DNA of 64,000 bases, taken from positions 99,210 to 163,209 of the forward strand of contig CAKTYZ010000003.1 of assembly GCA_934635225.1 (NCBI GenBank), given 5' to 3'. The notes beneath the pieces are model-generated. The model was not told the DNA's origin, did no database searches, and saw nothing but the letters and a program-made list of their open reading frames with translations. This DNA comes from an uncultured Kiritimatiellota bacterium. GTDB taxonomy: Bacteria > Verrucomicrobiota > Kiritimatiellia > RFP12 > UBA1067. Every line of letters begins with the position of its first letter. Positions within the stretch are counted from its first letter, which is position 1. This document shows positions 1-56,809 of this stretch, in pieces. The position numbers and the translations under genes are program-made.

Positions 1-404
1 CGGAACGTCATTTCGCCTTGGGTCAGCGTCACCTCGCCCTCGGCCCAGCCGCTCTTGGTCTGGCGGTCAATGACACAGCTCTCCGCCTCCAGAAGAAAAT
101 CCAACGACTTGTCCGCCTTGAACGCATGCACCGTCACGCCCCCGGCCCAGACAAGACCCGTATTCAGGAAATACTGGACCTTCTTCGCCTGCACGGAGAC
201 TTTCACCGCACCGTCCGGAAACGTCTCGACCGGCAGAACCACGTCTTCGGCCGGCGTCTGAAGGTCTCGCAGACACTGCTGGTAGGCTTTGCGAAGGCGC
301 GTGACTTCCTGGGAGAGGTCTTCGCGCCGTTCAAGCCATGCCGTCGAGTCGAACGCGCATGCGCTCGTCGTCAGGAGAAGCGGAACTATGGCGAGAAACC
401 TCAC
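1..404 (-). CDS. hypothetical lipoprotein, 3' partial; apparent GTG start overlapping the kdsA stop
   Basis: My own minus-strand translation of 404->1 is open with no stops: (V/M)RFLAIVPLLLTTSAC AFDSTAWLERREDLSQEVTRLRKAYQQC...GEVTLTQGEMTF. LLLTTSAC is a lipobox-like signal. GTG at 404-402 overlaps the kdsA TGA (GTGA). It is absent from the ORF track because there is no ATG and it runs off the window edge. Confidence 0.3.
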   Translation of the reverse strand, partial: MRFLAIVPLLLTTSACAFDSTAWLERREDLSQEVTRLRKAYQQCLRDLQTPAEDVVLPVETFPDGAVKVSVQAKKVQYFLNTGLVWAGGVTVHAFKADKSLDFLLEAESCVIDRQTKSGWAEGEVTLTQGEMTF

Positions 405-9951: not shown

Positions 9952-12900
9952 TTAAATGGCCGTCACATCCCATTTCTCGGTCGTGGGCCTCGCCTCAAGC
10001 TTGAAACCCTGCACATCCTTCAGGCGAAGTTCGGGATGAAGTTCCTCCGCCTTCCACAGGCGCAAAACCGGACCGTCCACGCCTTCGGCGCGCACATCAC
10101 GCAAGTCAAGAAGCCGAACATAGGCCCCGCGCATGAATTCCCGCACAGGGTCCCGAAACGCCATTTCGCAAGCATTCAGGCGCAACACCAGCGGCACACG
10201 CGCATCCGCCCAGACGTTGAGCGGCTGACCGATGTTCCGAGCCTTGACTCGACAGAAGGCGATGTCCGCCAACGGTGCGCCCTTCTGCCAGATTTCATTG
10301 CCGGAAAAATTGTAATGGAGAAAACGGTCCGCTCCGTCAATCTCGCAGTCTTCGACGACGATATCACCCGGAGGATTGCGAATCGGCTGAAGGAAATCAG
10401 CGAAATAGGTCCAGAACGAAAGCAAATTGTGACGTCCGATTCCCTGGCAGTCGTTCCCGGCAATCTGATCTGCACGCGGCAGGGTATTGCGAATCGGCCA
10501 CTCACCCGGCCCCCAGACCTTGACCCGCCGCACACGCACATGCGTGCCGCCGAAACGAAAGGCGCTGCATGCCGTGTTGAGACGGCAGTCCTCAACCAGC
10601 ACATCCGTGTTGTCATACCCCGCGATGCAGTCGTCTCCGCACCGGATGTCGCAATTCCGAACCGTCACGCGATCGCACCCGCGCATATGGACACCGTCAT
10701 GTCCGCCACGTATGGTCAAGTTCTCGAAACAGAGGTCCGCGCACGTATTGAAGTGATTCGCCCAGTTCCCCGTGCGCCGAAGCTCGATGCCGCGCACCAA
10801 GACGTTCGTCGATCCAAACGCATTGATGCCATGCGCCCCCCGAAAGCCCTCCTCGCCCTGCGGATCGAAAGAGTTGTTTCCGTCGATCACACTTCCGCGC
10901 TCGCCGAGAATCACCACGTTCGTCGCCGCAACAAGACGGATGACGCCGCGATTCCAACGCGCTGCAGGATTCGTGAGCGGATGCCGATAGTCCTTCGAAC
11001 GCTTGGCGATGGGGAGCCACAACGCCTGCCGCGCCGAAGCGAGGACTCCCGGCGGCAGAGGCTCAACCTCGTCGGCCTCGAGAATGTCATACGCATCCAA
11101 ATCCCGCGAAGCGGAGAGGACGGCATTCTCGAGCAAATGAAGCGTCACGTTCGACCGCACACGCAAAGACGAGATCCTGTGGACTCCCGGCGCAATCTCG
11201 ACTGTTCCGCCTCCCTGCCGCCACACCGCATCAATCTGGCCCTGAATCTCCGCCGTTTCATCGGTCAGCGCGTCCGGAAGCCATTTCTTGACCCGTTTCC
11301 AGTCGAACGGCGGTTCACCATAAAGGAAGTGATTCACATAAGGCTTGCCATCCAGCGTCGCATCGATCTGGATGACGCCCTGACCTGAAAACGCTACAGA
11401 GCCCAATTCGACCTTGCCATTCGCAGGAATCCGGAAGGTCTTCTCCAGCAAGACCGTCTCCGTCTCCAAGTCCGTCAAGCGCGCCGTGCCTTCTATCGGA
11501 CGACGCGCGTCATTCACCGCCCACGCCTTGTGGTCATCGGTCACGCAGACGATTTGGTCGCGCTGGGCGTTCTTGAGCGCGAAGTAGGCGCGCTTCTTGC
11601 CGCCATACCAGTCCACGACCGCGTCCGAGATGACCGGCCAGCCGTCTCGCACGTTCCACCAGATCAGCCCATTTGAGCGCGTGAACTTACGGCTGCGGAA
11701 GAGTTCGCAGAACGTCTTCATCGCCTCGGCTTGAACGAACTGGCTCTGCGCAATGAACGTGTCGAGATCCGTCTCGACACCGCCAAACATCAAACGGACC
11801 TGATTCGTCATGAGCGAATTGCGACGCTGTCCAAACGAGCCGACACGCCAATCAACCGCCTTGAAAACCCACTCGTCGTTCCAGCGAAGTTCCGAAGGAT
11901 TCTTGAGAAACGACGCCGACGCGGTCACCCATGGATAGACATTCGACGCGGTCATCATCCGTTCGAGAGACGCGCGATTCGGGCATCCATGATACCCCAT
12001 CTCGGAGACGAACCACGCGGGGCTATTCGTGTAGTAGTCCGTCTTGTACGCGCCACGTGCCCCCCAAAGATGGTCCTCGGACGGCTGGGCGCGCCTCGCG
12101 AAGACATCCGGCGAGACATACGGCGAACTCGGCAGATAGGGCCGCGTCACGTCGAACTCGTAGATGACATCCGCCAGCGTGCGACGACTGTTGCGGTCAC
12201 CATTCGGGTCGCGTCCCAAAGCCCCGAGCTGCCACGACGCCGCCTGGTCGTTCTCGTTGTTGCCGCTCCACAAGACAAGCGACGCGCGGTTGCGCAAACG
12301 CAATATGACCGACCGCGCCTCGGCCTCCGTCTGCTTCGCGTAGTCGTCCCCCTGCGGGAAGACGCTGCACCCGGTCATGAAGTCCTGCCAGACCATAAGG
12401 CCGTTCGCGTCACACCAATCGAAAAACGCATCCGGCTCATACACGCCACCGCCCCAAACACGGACCATGTTGCAGTTCAGGTCCTTAAAGAGTTCCAGCG
12501 TCTCGACAATCCGGTCTTTCTGCCGCGACGGAATCGCGTCAAGCGGAACCCAGTTCGACCCTCGGACATAGCAGGGCTCGCCGTTGATCTTGAAGAGGAA
12601 CTGTCCGGGACGCTCGGGGCCGTAGACGTCTTCGCGCACAAGCTCAACCGTCCGCACGCCAATCTTCTCCGCATGCGAGGCCAGAACACGCCCGTCATCG
12701 CCCTGCACCTCAAAACGCGCTTCATACAGCGCGGGTTCGCCAGAGCCGCGCGGCCACCAAAGATCAGGGCGGTCCAGACGAAGCCGCAAATTAGGGAAAT
12801 GCCCCGTCAGCGTCTGTTCGGCCTTCGCCGCGAGCCTGCCGTTCCGCGTCAGCGTCGCGACAATCTTCGCATGGTCCAGCGTGGAAAACGGCGACCGCAC

Positions 12901-13605
12901 GCGACAGCGCGCAATCAGATCGGCGAAAGCCCTTTTCGCGTCAAGAGAACGGACGATCCACGCCGTTTGGTCAATCTGCACGGGGCCTTCGACCCTCAGC
13001 GAAACATCGCGCCAAAGGCCGCTGACAAAGGCCCGAGGCAGAATGTCCCAGCCGCCCATGTGCCCCGCCTTCCGGAACGGCTCCCCGTCCGCACCGCCAC
13101 TCATCGAATAGCCGAGTTCGCCCAATGTCGCGTCCTGCGCCTCGCACATCACGCTCCGCAACAGGACCTGTACCGTGTTCATGCCATCACGCAACCGCGA
13201 CGTTATGTCAAAGCGATGTGGGATCAACATATTAGAGGACCCACCGATCTTTTCGCCGTTCAGGAAGTAGTCCGCCAACGTATCAACACCGTCAAAACAC
13301 AACAGAACGCGTCCGCCCGGTGGGATGGACGGCTTCTCGAATGCCCGCGCATAAAGCCACTGGTAACCTTCATACGGACGCAACAGACGGGCGTTAAGGC
13401 CGACCTCTGGCACGGGCAAGTCACCCGCTCGCACAAGATCAAGTTCACAATTTCCGGGAACAGTCGCCGTGACGGTTCTCACCTGAAGTCCCGAGGGCAA
13501 GGGAAGGGACCGAACGGCCCCTGCGTCCGGCTGGGGAAATGCGTCAAGACGCCAGTCGCCGTTCAACGACAGAACAGCGGCAATCACACAAAGGGCATTT
13601 ATCAT
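9952..13605 (-). CDS. secreted bifunctional glycoside hydrolase: GH2 (beta-mannosidase-like) N-terminal module fused to a GH28-like right-handed beta-helix module
   Basis: 1217 aa with a signal peptide. GH2 blocks: LCFDGVDTLADYFLNGEKIG, NCNMVRVWGGGVYEP..NGLMVWQDFM and WSGNNEN (beta-mannosidase-type). C-terminal about 430 aa carry NCDIRCGDDCIAGYDN and repeated NxTI(R/L) beta-helix turns typical of GH28. Confidence 0.7.
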   Translation of the reverse strand: MINALCVIAAVLSLNGDWRLDAFPQPDAGAVRSLPLPSGLQVRTVTATVPGNCELDLVRAGDLPVPEVGLNARLLRPYEGYQWLYARAFEKPSIPPGGRVLLCFDGVDTLADYFLNGEKIGGSSNMLIPHRFDITSRLRDGMNTVQVLLRSVMCEAQDATLGELGYSMSGGADGEPFRKAGHMGGWDILPRAFVSGLWRDVSLRVEGPVQIDQTAWIVRSLDAKRAFADLIARCRVRSPFSTLDHAKIVATLTRNGRLAAKAEQTLTGHFPNLRLRLDRPDLWWPRGSGEPALYEARFEVQGDDGRVLASHAEKIGVRTVELVREDVYGPERPGQFLFKINGEPCYVRGSNWVPLDAIPSRQKDRIVETLELFKDLNCNMVRVWGGGVYEPDAFFDWCDANGLMVWQDFMTGCSVFPQGDDYAKQTEAEARSVILRLRNRASLVLWSGNNENDQAASWQLGALGRDPNGDRNSRRTLADVIYEFDVTRPYLPSSPYVSPDVFARRAQPSEDHLWGARGAYKTDYYTNSPAWFVSEMGYHGCPNRASLERMMTASNVYPWVTASASFLKNPSELRWNDEWVFKAVDWRVGSFGQRRNSLMTNQVRLMFGGVETDLDTFIAQSQFVQAEAMKTFCELFRSRKFTRSNGLIWWNVRDGWPVISDAVVDWYGGKKRAYFALKNAQRDQIVCVTDDHKAWAVNDARRPIEGTARLTDLETETVLLEKTFRIPANGKVELGSVAFSGQGVIQIDATLDGKPYVNHFLYGEPPFDWKRVKKWLPDALTDETAEIQGQIDAVWRQGGGTVEIAPGVHRISSLRVRSNVTLHLLENAVLSASRDLDAYDILEADEVEPLPPGVLASARQALWLPIAKRSKDYRHPLTNPAARWNRGVIRLVAATNVVILGERGSVIDGNNSFDPQGEEGFRGAHGINAFGSTNVLVRGIELRRTGNWANHFNTCADLCFENLTIRGGHDGVHMRGCDRVTVRNCDIRCGDDCIAGYDNTDVLVEDCRLNTACSAFRFGGTHVRVRRVKVWGPGEWPIRNTLPRADQIAGNDCQGIGRHNLLSFWTYFADFLQPIRNPPGDIVVEDCEIDGADRFLHYNFSGNEIWQKGAPLADIAFCRVKARNIGQPLNVWADARVPLVLRLNACEMAFRDPVREFMRGAYVRLLDLRDVRAEGVDGPVLRLWKAEELHPELRLKDVQGFKLEARPTTEKWDVTAI

Positions 13606-13696
13606 GCGAGATCCTTCCTACTTTGTCATTATCCCGATTCAAGGTAATGGGAATTATAGCAAATCTCCCATCCCCTCTGCAAACTGCGGCAGAAGA

Positions 13697-13898
13697 CGAA
13701 AATGGTACCAAAATGGTAATATCTAACGGGTCAGCAAAGAAGAGAGGCAGGCCATGGGGATCGACAAGGAGAGAAAGCGAACAACGCCACCCCATAGATG
13801 CCGGGGACGGCCCGGAACGGATGCTTCAACCGATGCGGATGGAAGGGGCGTCTCCATGCGGATGGATGAGCCGCCTCCATGCGGATGGGCCGTGGGGA
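13697..13898. repeat. copy 1 of a duplicated ~200-bp intergenic element ending in tandem 22-bp CCATGCGGATGG-containing units
   Basis: Direct sequence comparison with 55935-56136. They share an exact 36-mer AAAATGGTAATATCTAACGGGTCAGCAAAGAAGAGA, then about 130 nt at roughly 85-90% identity, then 2 (here) or 3 (copy 2) tandem units CCATGCGGATGG(A/G)TGAGCC.CC.C. Confidence 0.7.
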
Positions 13899-13981
13899 GC
13901 CTGTCCCTGCCGGGACGCGACGCGTTTCAAGAGCGCATCCCCTCGTCAGAAGGCCTGAAGCAAGGCCGAGTCACAAGTCGT

Positions 13982-14343
13982 TCATTCGCCGCGCAGCCGC
14001 CAGCCGAGCGGCGCGACCGCCAAGCCGTCCGGCAGGGCGTAGGGCCTGTCCGCATAGTTGACGACGATCTCCGTTCCGTCCGACCAGCGCGTCGCGTAGA
14101 CGCCCTCGGCTCGCGGTCCTCGTAGGCGCGAAAGATCCGTTGGACGCCCTCCTTCAGCGCTGCGTTCGAGAGGCCCGTCTCAGGATCGCTCACGTCCGTC
14201 CGCCACTTCCATTCGAGGTAGAGCGGCATGTTCGTGAGCGTGGCGGCGGGCGACGCCTTACGCTGGGGCACGACCCACTCCTCGCCGCGTCCGGACGCGC
14301 CAAAAGCCGCAAGCGCGACAAGAATTCCGCAGATGATTCTCAT
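13982..14343 (-). CDS. small secreted hypothetical protein with an apparent -1 frameshift near 14110
   Basis: Signal peptide MRIICGILVALAAFGASG. The frame is sensible to ..QRIFRAYEDREP, then turns Arg-rich. My translation of the -1 frame continues plausibly (EGVYATRWSDGTEIVVNYADRPYALPDGLAVAPLGWRLRGE*) to a stop at 13982-13984. Confidence 0.3.
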
Positions 14344-26731: not shown

Positions 26732-26739
26732 TTCGCCCC

Positions 26740-26790
26740 GTAGTATAGCATCCTCGCCGCGCCAAGGTCCACTACTCAAATGAGTAGTGC
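26740..26790 (-). promoter_or_regulatory. conserved 30-bp palindrome-containing motif plus TATACTAC -10 box (copy 2 of 3) upstream of the GH116 gene
   Basis: On the minus strand: GCACTACTCATTTGAGTAGTGGACCTTGGC, 13 nt, TATACTAC, 8 nt, ATG(26731). The 30-mer is identical at 35972-36001 and 42472-42501. Confidence 0.55.
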
Positions 26791-35610: not shown

Positions 35611-35971
35611 ATGCTCGCGCCAACACTCCAACTGAAGACGAGAACCACACAGATATCGCCACATATGCAATAACATGGAAAAGTATACCTTATTTTCATT
35701 TGGCTTGTCAATCATGCGACCATGACAAATTAGAAACCACGACAGTAGATGCAAGTCTCCGCAGGTGTGGCATCGCGCGGAGGGGCGGGAAGTGGCGCGA
35801 GTGAGGAGCGAGGGTTTGCAGACGTCGAAGGGGTCTCGCCCGCAGCCCGTGGTCTCGCCGAGGCATGGCAGGCTGAAGCCGGACGGTTGTCTTCAGAAAG
35901 AAGCGCAACCCCGAACGATGAGACCGAGCGAACAGCTTCCCGCTCCGACGCGCGCACTGTCAAGCCGACAT

Positions 35972-36038
35972 GCCAAGGTCCACTACTCAAATGAGTAGTG
36001 CCGCGCACGACATCAACAACGCCACAGTTTGGTATACT
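35972..36038 (+). promoter_or_regulatory. conserved 30-bp motif (copy 1 of 3) plus TATACTAC -10 box upstream of the sensor-kinase gene (near-leaderless start)
   Basis: Plus strand: GCCAAGGTCCACTACTCAAATGAGTAGTGC (35972-36001), 31 nt, TATACT (36033-36038), 7 nt, ATG 36046. The motif orientation is inverted relative to the two minus-strand copies. The same motif could also serve the divergent radical-SAM operon. Confidence 0.5.
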
Positions 36039-40791: not shown

Positions 40792-42123
40792 TCACTCGGC
40801 CGCCACGGGACAGACTACGCGAAGCCCGAAGAAGTTCTTCTGCAGTTCGTCCGGCAGCGTCAGGTTGATGCCCCACCGCACGCTCAGGCGGCAGAAGAAC
40901 GCCTTGTTGCACCAGCTACCGCCGCGCACAGCGGCAAATCCGTTGTCCGCAATCGCCGCACCATCCGCATGGGCGAGGTTGTCGTCTACATATCCGCCGA
41001 GGCACCATTCCCAGACGTTGCCGGCCATGTCGTAAAGCCCCCAGTGGTTCGGCGCGTAAGACCCGACGACGGCCGTTCCGTTCTCCGCCGAGCAGTCCTG
41101 TGCCGGCTCCGCACCGTCGATGAAGCCGCCGTTCGCGAGGTAGCGCCCCGGCAAGTTCGCGTCCGGCGCATCGTCCTGACCGGCGACGACGAGAACCGCC
41201 GCGCCGTTCCCCCAGCGCCCGTCGATGTCGCCCGCACGGGCCGCGTATTCCCACTGCGCCTCCGTCGGCAGGTCAAACGCCAGACCCGTGCGCGTCCGCA
41301 GCATGCCGAGATAGGAAGTCCCTGCAGGATCGGCAGGATAGTCGGCGGTCGCATCGTTCCAGTTCCCGGCCGCCTTGCGGATCATGTAGTAACTCACGCG
41401 CTCGACTGGCCGCATCGCGTAGTCCTGCACGTTGTTGAAATACGCACACCTGAAATTGCCGTTGTCGTTGTCCTTTTCTGGGATCTCCCATTGGCGCTGC
41501 GTGATGGGGAAGACGCCGATGTAGTAGCTGTCGGACATCGTCACCTTGTGCGTCTTTTCCGTGTTGCCCCAGTTGGCGCTTCCCATCGTCCACGTGACGT
41601 CCTTGGCCATGATCTTGCGCAGCACGAGGGATGTCGTGCGGTAGTCGGCGTTCGCGAGCAGACCTCCCGGCAGGAAGTCTTCGGACGGATAGTAGCGCTG
41701 CGTCTTCGGCTGCGCACCGCTCGAGATATCGACAACCATGTAATCGGGCGGATTGTCCAGTGCCCACGCCTTGACGACGGCCCGCGCACCGCCGTTCGCT
41801 ACCTTGTGCCCAGGCCAGTCCGCGCTCGGATCCCAACGGATCGTGTGTGCACCGACATCGGACTTCTTCCAGCAGTCGCCCGTGACGCGCTGAATGTGCG
41901 TACCTCCGATGGACGACCAGACGCCGTTCGCGTCGTTCGTCTGGATGTCCAGCGTGATGATGGCTGGCGCGACGGCAAGCTCGTAGTCAACCGTGACCCT
42001 GCGATGGCTATCCTGCCGCATCGCCACGGACACAATTTCAGGGGGTGGCTCAGCCATCGCGCAAGATGTGCCAACCACGCCGACGATGACGCCACACAGG
42101 CAAGCGAACTGACTTCTGTTCAT
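40792..42123 (-). CDS. secreted formylglycine-generating-enzyme (FGE)-sulfatase domain protein (SUMF1/EgtB/PvdO superfamily)
   Basis: Signal peptide. C-terminal hallmark NHWGLYDMAGNVWEW...RGGSW of the FGE-sulfatase fold, and an earlier YRLPTEAEWEYAARAG-like block (LPTEAQWEYAARAG). Confidence 0.75.
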   Translation of the reverse strand: MNRSQFACLCGVIVGVVGTSCAMAEPPPEIVSVAMRQDSHRRVTVDYELAVAPAIITLDIQTNDANGVWSSIGGTHIQRVTGDCWKKSDVGAHTIRWDPSADWPGHKVANGGARAVVKAWALDNPPDYMVVDISSGAQPKTQRYYPSEDFLPGGLLANADYRTTSLVLRKIMAKDVTWTMGSANWGNTEKTHKVTMSDSYYIGVFPITQRQWEIPEKDNDNGNFRCAYFNNVQDYAMRPVERVSYYMIRKAAGNWNDATADYPADPAGTSYLGMLRTRTGLAFDLPTEAQWEYAARAGDIDGRWGNGAAVLVVAGQDDAPDANLPGRYLANGGFIDGAEPAQDCSAENGTAVVGSYAPNHWGLYDMAGNVWEWCLGGYVDDNLAHADGAAIADNGFAAVRGGSWCNKAFFCRLSVRWGINLTLPDELQKNFFGLRVVCPVAAE

Positions 42124-42421: not shown

Positions 42422-42450
42422 GGCAGATGGTTTCCTCTTTCATTCCGCCA

Positions 42451-42501
42451 ATAGTATAACACGCACGTCGCGCCAAGGTCCACTACTCAAATGAGTAGTG
42501 C
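42451..42501 (-). promoter_or_regulatory. conserved 30-bp motif plus TATACTAT -10 box (copy 3 of 3)
   Basis: Minus strand: GCACTACTCATTTGAGTAGTGGACCTTGGC, 13 nt, TATACTAT, 29-nt leader with AGAGGA SD, ATG(42421). Sits between the clpB 3' end and the small Cys-protein gene. Confidence 0.55.
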
Positions 42502-53755: not shown

Positions 53756-55039
53756 TCAGTCCTCACGCCACTTAAGGTAGCGGACCGTCTTGTCCTTCAC
53801 ATAGCATTCGCAGTTGACCTCATGCTTCATGCCCATTGACTCGGAGATGATCTTCATCTTGAAGACGGTATTCTCGTCCGCCGTGTAGCAAAGATACTGG
53901 TTGGCGTCCGAACCGATTTCGACGTTCGCGTTGTCTGAAACGCGCTTGCAGAGGTCTTGCCAGTCTTTATAAGGCCACCAGTCTCGCGTCTCGTCCACAT
54001 TGCCGTCATCCGGCATGACCGTGCGCGTCTCAACGATGGCCCGCGCGATCTCTTCTGACTCCCCCGTGTCGCCGTCGTTCGTCGCGTCCTCGTTAAAGAC
54101 GCCTGGAACGGTCAGAAGCTGTTCGACCGTGCAATCGTTCACGTTGACCTTCGCGCTGCCGGACGTGCCGAAGACATTGACGATGCCTTTGAGGCGCGGA
54201 TTCTCCTCCGACTCGTCCTCGTCCGGATACAGCAACCCGCCCGTCAGGACCGCAGGGAAGTCGCGGAACCCTCTCACTGAGGCAAGTTCCTTGATGTCCG
54301 GAATGGACCCATTGCGCGGACGACGACGCTCCTCCTTTGCGGCGTTTCGTGCCGCTTTTCCGTGCGCCGCATCCTCTGTCCGCTCGTCCGCCTCCGCATA
54401 CCATGCTGACTCGGCGCCATCATCTTCCTCCGGGCGACAGTCTGACAAAGGTCCTTTCGATACCGTGTCATCCTCGTCGCGCCAGTCATTCCAACTGGCG
54501 ATCAGGAGGTTCATAAGGTTGTGCCGCTTCATGCCGCGTCCGTCAGCCTCCTTGACGTCAACCTCCAGATCCTCGTCAATTCCGGCGGACTTCAGGATCA
54601 TCTGCCAACGCAACGCGTAGTTCTTGTCGCCTCCCGAATAAAGTTCATTGATGTTGATGCCATTCTCGCTGCCTGAGTTCGCGAGCTGGATTTCGACCGT
54701 GACCGTGCCCGACGATTCGTCTTCCTCGTCCAGCAGGATCGGCCCGATCGTGCACTTTGACTCGAATTTGAGGGACCGCTTTTCCAAGTAAAACCGATCC
54801 TCCTCGTCCAGTTCCTTCGCGTTTTCGTTCTCACTCCATTCCTTCGCCTCCGAAAAGCCCAGCAAGACAACCTCGCCCAGAATGCGTCCGGGTTCCACCA
54901 GCCGCGTCACGCGATTGCGCTCGCGGACATAGACGTTAATGCCCGCCTGCTGATGCGCTTCAAAGGCGAACGAGAACACCATGACCGACAGTACGGCGAT
55001 GATCCAAAGCGCAACGATCAATGCGCTGCCGCGTCTCAT
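53756..55039 (-). CDS. type II secretion system minor pseudopilin GspK-like
   Basis: N-terminus MRRGSALIVALWIIAVLSVMVFSFAFE is typical of GspK (no prepilin-peptidase site). Large periplasmic domain with an HhH-like CTVEQLLTVPGV. Confidence 0.55.
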   Translation of the reverse strand: MRRGSALIVALWIIAVLSVMVFSFAFEAHQQAGINVYVRERNRVTRLVEPGRILGEVVLLGFSEAKEWSENENAKELDEEDRFYLEKRSLKFESKCTIGPILLDEEDESSGTVTVEIQLANSGSENGININELYSGGDKNYALRWQMILKSAGIDEDLEVDVKEADGRGMKRHNLMNLLIASWNDWRDEDDTVSKGPLSDCRPEEDDGAESAWYAEADERTEDAAHGKAARNAAKEERRRPRNGSIPDIKELASVRGFRDFPAVLTGGLLYPDEDESEENPRLKGIVNVFGTSGSAKVNVNDCTVEQLLTVPGVFNEDATNDGDTGESEEIARAIVETRTVMPDDGNVDETRDWWPYKDWQDLCKRVSDNANVEIGSDANQYLCYTADENTVFKMKIISESMGMKHEVNCECYVKDKTVRYLKWRED

Positions 55040-55869
55040 TTCTTCTTCTCTCCCTTCTTGTCATCGCCGCCCGGCGGCGTCGCGCCATCCAGCGACTGCT
55101 CGTGAATCGGGATGCGAACAATGCGGACCATCGGCGCACGGTCCGTTCGTGAACGGAAGTTCTCGTCCGGCTTCTCGATATGGAACGTCAACTCGACCTT
55201 GTAGGGGACGGCATTCGATTCGGAGAACTCGTCCTTGAAGTTGCGCTTGTCGTTCTCGCCTTCGTTCTTCGCCGAACCACTCGCCTCCTCCGCCTTCGCC
55301 AAAACGCGGCAGTTGAAGCCCGAGACGCCGTCCGCGATGAGAATCGGCTGATAAAGTTCGACATTGCCGAAGGTATAGTCCGTGTCATCGGCATCGTCCT
55401 TCGGGATGAGCGCGGCATCTCCGCAGAGACGTGCGTAGAGTCCCGTCCTCTGAATCGGCTCGGCGTAGTCGTTGTTTCCCTCTTCGAGAACCATCACCTG
55501 CACGCGATGCACCGTGTCGGCAAGCGCGTTCTTCGTGCCGACAATCGCCGGCCCCGTCTTTGACCACGTGATCACGTCCGAGCGGTCCGGGCTCTCGCCC
55601 TTGCCGCGATCCTCCAGCACGAAGCCATAGTCGGCGTTCTGCTTGCCGTCGTGCGGATAATGCATCGAGCGCAGCCCCGCGATGACTTGGTTCAACGCAT
55701 AGTCCGTGCGCTGCATCTTGTCCAGATAGTCCGCCGAGACCTGCCAGCCGCGCGAGACGGATTGGAATGTCATGACGCTCAATGCCGTAAGAACGCCCAC
55801 CAAGAGCGTCGCCAGCAGCATCTCGATGAGCGTAAAGCCCCAACGGCTCGACTTGATCGACTTATTCCC
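55036..55869 (-). CDS. prepilin-type N-terminal cleavage/methylation-domain pseudopilin (GspJ-like)
   Basis: Real start MGNKSIKSSRWGFTLIEMLLATLLVGVL (G-F-T-L-I-E class-III signal). The track ORF extends upstream through the repeat element. 4-nt overlap with the gspK-like gene. Confidence 0.55.
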   Translation of the reverse strand, partial: GNKSIKSSRWGFTLIEMLLATLLVGVLTALSVMTFQSVSRGWQVSADYLDKMQRTDYALNQVIAGLRSMHYPHDGKQNADYGFVLEDRGKGESPDRSDVITWSKTGPAIVGTKNALADTVHRVQVMVLEEGNNDYAEPIQRTGLYARLCGDAALIPKDDADDTDYTFGNVELYQPILIADGVSGFNCRVLAKAEEASGSAKNEGENDKRNFKDEFSESNAVPYKVELTFHIEKPDENFRSRTDRAPMVRIVRIPIHEQSLDGATPPGGDDKKGEKKK

Positions 55870-55934
55870 CATGAGGGATAGTATAGCAAAAAGGCCATTA
55901 CCCCATCCAGTCGGCGGAGATGGCCGCTCCGGAC

Positions 55935-56136
55935 CGAAAATGGTAATATCTAACGGGTCAGCAAAGAAGAGAGACCGGCCAGGGGGCTCAACCAAAGAAG
56001 AAAAGCGAACAACGCCACCCCATAGATGCCGGGGACGCCCTTGAACGGATGCGTCAACCGATGCGGATGGATGAGCCACCCCCATGCGGATGGGTGAGGT
56101 ACCCCCATGCGGATGGGTGAGCCACCCCCATGGGGG
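55935..56136. repeat. copy 2 of the duplicated ~200-bp intergenic element with three tandem 22-bp CCATGCGGATGG units
   Basis: See the copy-1 entry. Here it is inserted between the gspI-like and gspJ-like genes of the pseudopilin operon. Confidence 0.7.
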
Positions 56137-56311
56137 CATGGCAGAGGAAGCATGCCATAGACAAGGCACCCGACGATCCGAGCTCGGCCATCTCGAGATG
56201 GACACCGTCGTCGGTTCAGGCGGGCTGCTGGCCCTTCTCGACCGCCGCGAGGCGGCCTCGCATCGCGCAGACGGCCTCAGGAAGGCCCTTTGAGACGTTA
56301 GCTAAAAAGCA

Positions 56312-56322
56312 GGGGGGGGGGG
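56312..56322. repeat. G11 homopolymer tract preceded by AGCTAAAAAGCA
   Basis: 11 consecutive G counted. Located between the gspI-like stop (56354) and the ~200-bp repeat. The context parallels the tract at 24168-24178. Confidence 0.6.
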
Positions 56323-56353
56323 TAAGAATCTTGAGTGCGCGTGCGCAGACAAT

Positions 56354-56809
56354 TCAACGCACCGGCTTGCGCCAGAGCGTGACATAGCTCTCCTGCTCCT
56401 TCTTGCCGCGTCCCTGCCCGCGCATGCCCCACGTGACCGTGATTCGCACGCGATGGAGGTTGTTCATGCGCTTGACGTCGTCATCTGACGGGTTCCTGTC
56501 GAGGTTCTCCCGCTCCCACGTGAACCCATGGAATTTCTCCTGCTGTTCGCGCGTCAATCGTTCGTCGGAGACGAGACCCCATAATTCCGTGGCGCGCGTC
56601 TCGCGAACATCGAGATCGCCCTCCTCCTTGACATCTTCAAGAGGATACGCCATCTCGCCAAGGTCCATCACCTCCTGTGCCGTCTCCAATTCAGTCTGCG
56701 AAAGCATCATCTTCTGAGACTGCGACATCGACATGAGAATGCCCGTCAGGCCAAATCCGAGAAGAATCGCCGCCAACAGGACTTCCAACAGCGTAAAGCC
56801 CGGCTTCAT
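56354..56809 (-). CDS. pseudopilin GspI-like
   Basis: 151 aa. MKPGFTLLEVLLAAILLGFGL prepilin-type N-terminus. Confidence 0.55.
   Translation of the reverse strand: MKPGFTLLEVLLAAILLGFGLTGILMSMSQSQKMMLSQTELETAQEVMDLGEMAYPLEDVKEEGDLDVRETRATELWGLVSDERLTREQQEKFHGFTWERENLDRNPSDDDVKRMNNLHRVRITVTWGMRGQGRGKKEQESYVTLWRKPVR

Follow-up and report, generated by a model that had tools for sequence, protein, structure and literature searches.

Two minus-strand genes in the window (the whole 64,000-nucleotide stretch of Kiritimatiellota DNA that was analysed) have a related non-coding element lying a short distance upstream of them. The first gene encodes a glycoside hydrolase with Pfam GH2 and GH28 matches (9952..13605, minus strand). 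The second encodes a GspJ-like pseudopilin of 278 amino acids (55036..55872, minus strand), whose prepilin-type N-terminus can be read directly from the sequence. Each is preceded on its own strand by a predicted promoter with an extended -10 box, TGCTATAAT at 13653..13661 for the GH2/GH28 gene and TGCTATACT at 55880..55888 for the pseudopilin gene, the latter ending 7 nt before the ATG in a leaderless-type arrangement. The exact 278-aa pseudopilin recurs on 23 contigs from human-gut metagenomes, including those of the Hadza and of other cohorts, and its homologues belong to the T2SS of Kiritimatiellae.

The element itself is present in two plus-strand copies, copy A at ~13708-13889 (locus A) and copy B at ~55935-56135 (locus B). 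Both contain the exact 36-mer AAAATGGTAATATCTAACGGGTCAGCAAAGAAGAGA (13710-13745 and 55937-55972, plus strand), which occurs nowhere else in the 64-kb window and for which shuffled sequences give an expected count of 0 against the 2 observed. Beyond the 36-mer, pairwise alignment and a repeat finder place the two copies at 85% identity over blocks of 67 nt and 125 nt. Homology starts sharply at ~13708 in copy A and ~55935 in copy B, and neither the left nor the right flanks of the two copies are related to each other. The initial annotation, made from the sequence alone, had described a duplicated element of ~200 bp sharing an exact 36-mer, and two plus-strand copies at ~85% identity bear this out. 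The proximity to minus-strand genes that it reported also holds, with 105 nt between copy A and the GH2/GH28 start codon (ATG 13605) and 65 nt between copy B and that of the pseudopilin gene (ATG 55872). Its right end for copy B (56136) was too short: the copy extends to ~56245, because a fragment of a transposase gene follows the tandem array described below.

The origin of the element becomes clear from its relatives in metagenomes. A scan with the 21-mer TCTAACGGGTCNGCAAAGAAG recovered 38 loci. In all 38, (A)AATGGTAATATCTAACGGG marks an abrupt start of homology, and the sequence to its left is unrelated. Many of these matches lie at most ~100 nt from a contig end, the contigs breaking inside the element, as a multicopy repeat would be expected to make them do. 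Most of the 38 loci continue differently from the window copies, with a leader of ~185 nt and then an open reading frame starting MSRRKYTIRREAGLHLTDRQREMLGTAW. Two loci from gut and rumen metagenomes (L147 and L125) contain full-length insertion sequences (IS) of 1271 bp, in which the left end, a 185-nt leader and a 349-aa open reading frame are followed by a right repeat. The 349-aa product matches the NCBIfam model NF033563, 'IS30 family transposase', with 165.6 bits (cut-off 80) as well as Pfam rve, and its homologues are labelled 'IS30 family transposase' by JGI. The IS ends 36 nt past the transposase stop codon in ...TTTTTGCTGACCCACCCCCTTTACAAGTCACC, the right inverted repeat (IRR). The first 36 nt of L147, L125 and other full-length copies are identical to the window 36-mer. 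[quoted passage not shown] IRL and IRR have GGGTCAGCAAA in common in inverse orientation, the repeats being imperfect, and both ends are present in L147, L125, L112, L018 and L124. Target-site duplications of 14-16 bp flank five of the relatives (L147, L125, L168, L174 and L158). The true tip of the IS probably lies 3 nt to the left of AAATGG, in a triplet that varies between subfamilies (CCC, CGC, CGA, GCC). Beside copy A, AAATGGTAC at 13700-13708 repeats the tip of the IRL a single base (C, 13709) before the 36-mer (AAAATGGTAcC|AAAATGGTAat); this could be the trace of an earlier insertion beside an IS end, or a small duplication.

These relatives bear directly on whether the repeat has a mobile origin at all. 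Just two copies are visible within the 64-kb window, as might be seen if they had arisen by chance or by a segmental duplication private to the source genome, and the initial annotation had kept open the case in which only these two copies exist and derive from such a duplication. The family is instead multicopy and occupies unrelated loci. With unrelated flanks around the two copies, further occurrences at other loci and in other genomes, and a left end common to transposase-bearing IS copies with target-site duplications, an origin by chance or by segmental duplication is almost inconceivable, and that reading is refuted.

A second feature of the IRL is an extended -10 box, TGgTAATAT, which faces into the element at 13715-13723 in copy A and 55942-55950 in copy B. 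IS30 transposes by a copy-out-paste-in route through circles or tandem dimers. Its abutted IRR-IRL junction forms a strong promoter, Pjunc (PMC9333248). Two metagenome contigs contain abutted IRR-IRL junctions of the present family (L116 1400-1435; L114 ~100-135, reverse strand), with a spacer of 2-5 nt and with TTTACA or CTGACA placed 18 or 16 nt from TAATAT. At the sequence level, these junctions thus resemble Pjunc in pairing a -35 from the IRR with a -10 from the IRL (PMC9333248). They are circle junctions or those of tandem dimers, which implies a family that is currently active in those communities. From this arrangement we infer that TGgTAATAT is the -10 half of a predicted IS30-type junction promoter, which would be strong only when a TTTACA-bearing IRR abuts the IRL in a circle or tandem dimer. 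An AT-rich patch had been noticed earlier at this position and the element proposed to be promoter-bearing; the patch is accounted for as the IRL with its inward-facing -10 half, whereas the promoters of the host genes lie outside the element. If the patch serves both as the junction-promoter -10 and as the transposase-binding end, its perfect conservation despite drift to ~85% identity elsewhere would follow, the binding end having presumably stayed intact while the derivative was mobilised in trans.

IS30-family membership is thus supported through the full-length relatives by the transposase model, the inverted repeats, the target duplications and the junctions. Like IS30 of E. coli, ISApl1 and IS1630 of Mycoplasma fermentans, the relatives have a single DDE transposase of ~350 aa that matches NF033563, as well as imperfect terminal inverted repeats. 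Target-site duplications typical of IS30 and ISApl1 are 2-3 bp long, and the relatives differ from both in their 14-16-bp duplications. Long target duplications are known within the family from IS1630, in which they span 16-26 bp (PMC3317919), and in this respect the relatives resemble that element. The window copies depart from the family pattern in having lost the transposase and the right end, and in their Kiritimatiellae host. Taken on their own they lack both the pair of ends and the transposase that characterise an IS30-family member.

How much has been lost can be read by aligning the window copies with the full-length IS. The IRL occupies 13708..13745 in copy A and 55935..55972 in copy B (both plus strand, as are the features that follow), each assigned from the 36 nt shared with the start of the full-length IS and from the sharp start of homology among the 38 loci. 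A leader remnant comes next, at 13746..13795 in copy A (IS nt ~37-84, by local alignment to L147 IS nt 1-84) and at 55973..56023 in copy B (alignment to L147 IS nt 1-83). It is joined directly, in both copies, to codons 22-35 of the transposase gene, with ~165 nt, start codon included, internally deleted. In copy A these codons lie at 13796..13837 (EMLGTAWNGYVNRC), match L147 IS nt 250-291 at 34/42 nt and give a weak tblastn match, MPGTARNGCFNRC; in copy B they lie at 56024..56065, match the same nucleotides at 33/42 and give the tblastn match MPGTPLNGCVNRC. Copy B has in addition a degenerate fragment of the transposase catalytic core at 56159..56245 (aa 188-220, GHLEMDTVV..GGLLALLDR, tblastn E = 5.5e-6), and the allele of locus B in L002-L004 has kept aa 188-249 (tblastn E = 1.6e-12). 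Within the window, transposase sequence is confined to these degenerate fragments, codons 22-35 in both copies and aa 188-220 in copy B.

Neither an IRR-like sequence nor an inverted second IRL is found anywhere in the 64-kb window, and neither window copy has a recognisable target-site duplication. The insertion events are for this reason not directly reconstructable, and copy A has no definable boundary on its right side. A search for an empty-site allele of locus A returned identical alleles alone. A putative alternative right end in L005 (...TTTCATTACCA) was rejected, being absent from every other locus. A plus-strand open reading frame at 13754-14125 was likewise dismissed as protein-coding, as its ATG is AGG in copy B and is thus not conserved.

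Both elements are very probably decayed left-end fragments of a non-autonomous IS30-family derivative that belongs to gut and rumen Kiritimatiellae-like bacteria. Later deletions and rearrangements would have removed the remaining transposase gene and the right end, and loss of the right part in this way fits the manner in which synteny at locus B breaks off from one strain to another (see below). Having lost both, the window copies would now be immobile and encode nothing.

The most conspicuous part of the element is a short tandem array downstream of the codon remnant. Tandem Repeats Finder reports a period of 23 nt in both copies, with 2.4 copies at 13833-13888 in copy A and 3.1 copies at 56061-56132 in copy B. 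Counted by unit, the array of copy A (13831..13889, plus strand) comprises three units, each made up of (C/G)ATGCGGATGG and a spacer of 13 nt, and that of copy B (56059..56135, plus strand) comprises three units in the window. The tandem repeats of the initial annotation are therefore real, with a period of 23 rather than 22 nt; its unit counts of 2 and 3 give way to three in both arrays once the first CGATGCGGATGG unit is counted. Allowing at most one mismatch, CCATGCGGATGG occurs 7 times in the window against 0.53 expected, and 6 of the 7 occurrences fall inside the two arrays. The remaining match, at 40961, lies inside a coding region and was set aside as a chance match.

Unit number is variable. 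Across loci and strains, 33 units in 8 arrays are spaced 22-23 nt apart, with 2-7 units per array, and the array at locus B alone has 3, 4 or 7 units depending on the strain. In 32 of the 33 units the ATGCGGATGG core is unchanged beside a variable 13-nt spacer, which could mean that the core is under constraint and that slippage is not the whole cause. The first unit (CGATGCGGATGG...) starts within the remnant of transposase codons 33-35, so the array is an amplified scrap of dead transposase coding sequence, with the proviso that only the first ~12-15 nt of the unit are clearly homologous to that gene. Slipped-strand events or unequal recombination would then have amplified the unit into a variable-number tandem repeat (VNTR) of 2-7 units. 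Such an array resembles the minisatellite-like intergenic VNTRs of bacteria in its head-to-tail 23-nt units and in the variation of their number (2-7) between loci and strains; it differs in lying inside a transposon remnant and in having been seeded by a piece of the transposase reading frame. Amplification of this kind is not confined to the array: in a full-length IS copy from gut samples of the Hadza and others (L158), 35 nt of the leader, the transposase ATG among them, are duplicated in tandem (1316-1385). The 5' part of this IS family is thus a place where tandem duplications have arisen more than once.

Full-length copies of the IS lack the array, which marks a particular derivative. 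The array-bearing form is found at five unrelated loci (copies A and B in the window, L018, L136 and L148), and the sequence beyond the array differs at each of the five. One of them, L018, comes from a Kiritimatiellaeota MAG, is unrelated to loci A and B, and was the sole related sequence among the matches listed from a genome-contig scan for ATGCGGATGG N11-15 ATGCGGATGG, which gave at least 100 matches, most of them unrelated. This copy is complete at ~420 bp: its IRL, leader and array are followed by a fusion of transposase aa 52-69 with aa 316-349, and then by an IRR. A second miniature, L124, runs from IRL to IRR in ~175 bp and has no array. Both ends are present in L018 and L124, and neither has a clear target-site duplication. 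The existence of these two compact forms means that this IS family spawns derivatives resembling miniature inverted-repeat transposable elements (MITEs). The window copies are like MITEs in being short, non-coding, multicopy, carriers of an IS end and located at unrelated intergenic sites; they differ in carrying one end alone and in having no flanking duplications. The proposal of a mobile, MITE-like element made in the initial annotation accordingly stands as to the IS30-derived origin and the MITE-like relatives, and falls short as to the window copies themselves, which have neither right repeat nor target-site duplication. The name IS30-family remnant suits them best, each being a more decayed solo left end from one such MITE-like lineage.

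An invariant core in an amplified array invites functional readings, and the initial annotation had listed a cis-regulatory leader, an sRNA and iteron-like sites among its candidates. None of the three finds support: Rfam gives no match, the fold z-scores are -1.0 and -1.5, and the unit derives from transposase coding sequence. At the gathering threshold, Rfam finds tRNA alone in the whole window and nothing at either locus; relaxing the search to E <= 1 at both loci yields one chance-level match (Prion_pknot, 18.6 bits vs 39). Folding of the elements on either strand is no better than that of shuffled sequences (z = -1.0, -1.5 and +0.7), and consensus promoter and terminator scans detect nothing within either window copy, the promoter scan requiring a -35 match and hence missing promoters of the extended -10 type.

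Co-option of the 23-bp units as iteron- or enhancer-like sites, bound by a transcription factor or by the transposase and modulating the adjacent promoters or transposition, would fit with conservation of the core 10-mer while spacers drift, with a period close to two helical turns, and with the orientation and 49-nt spacing to the host promoter that copies A and B share. The spacing is, however, a property of the whole IS family, array-less members included; full-length copies do without the array, 170-250 bp separate the units from the host -10 boxes downstream of them, the number of units varies freely (3, 4, 7) between strains at locus B, and the same promoter is present in a relative that lacks the IS (L153). 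We consider such co-option highly unlikely.

An RNA-level reading is less probable still. CsrB/RsmZ-type sRNAs have GGA-containing motifs repeated in short hairpins, and the elements could in principle be plus-strand sRNA genes that start after TGgTAATAT and display CGGAUG in CCAU/AUGG hairpins, acting as a sponge of that type. The inward-facing extended -10-like box, the CGGAUG motifs (4 in copy A, 4-5 in copy B), the ATGCGGATGG core kept in 32/33 units, and a hairpin with a T-run after the array in L018 and L148 all lend themselves to this idea. Yet the -10 box belongs to an IRL that is conserved in an IS with a transposase gene, the region with the motifs derives from codons of that gene, and the sequence after the array is different in every copy. 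No Rfam family is matched even at E <= 1, the folds (z = -1.0 and -1.5) are no better than shuffles, and neither window copy has a terminator-like site. The element thus differs from CsrB/RsmZ-type sRNAs in its IS origin and in lacking a family match, a conserved structure and a defined 3' end. A CsrA sponge based on GGAUG motifs was rejected on the same ground, the transposase-codon origin of the sequence that contains them.

The neighbouring promoters bear on how the elements relate to their host genes. In both cases the predicted host promoter lies outside the element, 49 nt from the AAATGG of the IRL. In L153, an IS-free relative with 85% protein identity, the homologous TTTGCTATACTA precedes the pseudopilin orthologue, and the gene follows an aminotransferase gene. 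As far as these sequences indicate, the element did not bring the predicted GH2/GH28 and pseudopilin promoters; it adjoins them in host DNA.

Locus B is a site of rearrangement. In more distant relatives (L155-L157), pseudopilin genes of 150 aa and 280 aa overlap by 4 nt, and in the window the same two genes stand 481 nt apart (55872-56354), separated by the remnant. The window thus has a split pseudopilin operon, in which a separate TGCTATACT box precedes the downstream gene. The element is present at locus B in every strain recovered. Although the 278-aa pseudopilin is identical in L002-L005 and the window, the DNA beyond the remnant differs between them, being a pseudopilin gene, metallophosphatase and GH106 genes, or a gene of 1389 aa. 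The locus B remnant marks a rearrangement breakpoint. A G11 run (56312-56322) separates the stop codon of the 151-aa pseudopilin gene (56354) from the IS remnant, and a similar G8 run followed by GAGAATTG is seen at the L147 insertion site; the G11 run could be a slippage-prone tract or the remnant of a former target site. Elsewhere in the window, a direct repeat sharing GCCAAGGTCCACTACTCAAATGAGTAGTGC, a palindrome with 9-bp arms, occurs in three copies (26732-26790, 35943-36001 and 42443-42501). Two of the three adjoin minus-strand -10 boxes of the TGCTATACT type, and the repeat is a candidate for a shared operator of one regulator.

The position of the window copies relative to host promoters is common in the family at large. 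Among 31 distinct IRL-side flanks, each of at least 110 nt, 24 contain an outward-facing extended -10 box, in most cases TGGTATAAT together with an appropriately spaced TTGnnn -35. When the flanks are shuffled, the mean is 0.6 and the maximum 5 in 2000 trials. Two classes of distance separate the AAATGG of the IRL from the TG of the box: 35-40 nt in 11 flanks and 48-50 nt in 13. Copies A and B both belong to the 49-nt class. Copies found through their transposase, with independent flanks, give 38, 47, 48, 48 and 49 nt in five cases and 17 nt in a sixth. On the IRR side, an outward -10 at 34-40 nt is seen in just 3 of 13 flanks. The left flanks covered are those of L111-L148 and L158-L177, together with those of the two window copies.

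This pattern suggests insertion or survival that is promoter-proximal and biased in orientation. The IS family would insert, or survive, immediately upstream of host promoters, and the elements would not be regulators of the genes in question. On this account, both window copies lie just upstream of genes because the IS family sits near host promoters. A more specific proposal is a promoter ruler that guides the choice of target. Insertion would fall about 35-40 or 48-50 nt before the TG of an extended -10 (TGnTATAAT) in promoters of the sigma-70 type, and the site would overlap the -35/UP region or lie directly upstream of it, with about one helical turn between the two distance classes. The IS would always have the same orientation, its transposase gene and the host gene pointing away from each other. 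We hold this proposal tentatively, at somewhat short of an even chance. The alternative for the flank pattern is survivorship: in compact intergenic regions, the insertions that persist would be the harmless ones. In the literature searched, no description was found of fixed-distance insertion upstream of promoters for the IS30 family, and the clustering of insertions at fixed distances upstream of host promoters sets this IS apart from the known members.

Taken together, both loci should be annotated as IS30-family remnants and not as regulatory-RNA candidates or operator arrays. They are ordinary mobile-DNA debris, which marks sites of genome change in a lineage of gut Kiritimatiellae, and the array at locus B offers a strain-variable marker. 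Their wider interest lies in the IS family behind them, with its long target duplications and its regular position upstream of promoters, the pattern of promoter-proximal insertion being the sole part that a specialist might find surprising. If the promoter ruler is true, it would explain why both window copies are found directly upstream of genes, and the family would represent a bacterial counterpart of promoter-targeted integration.
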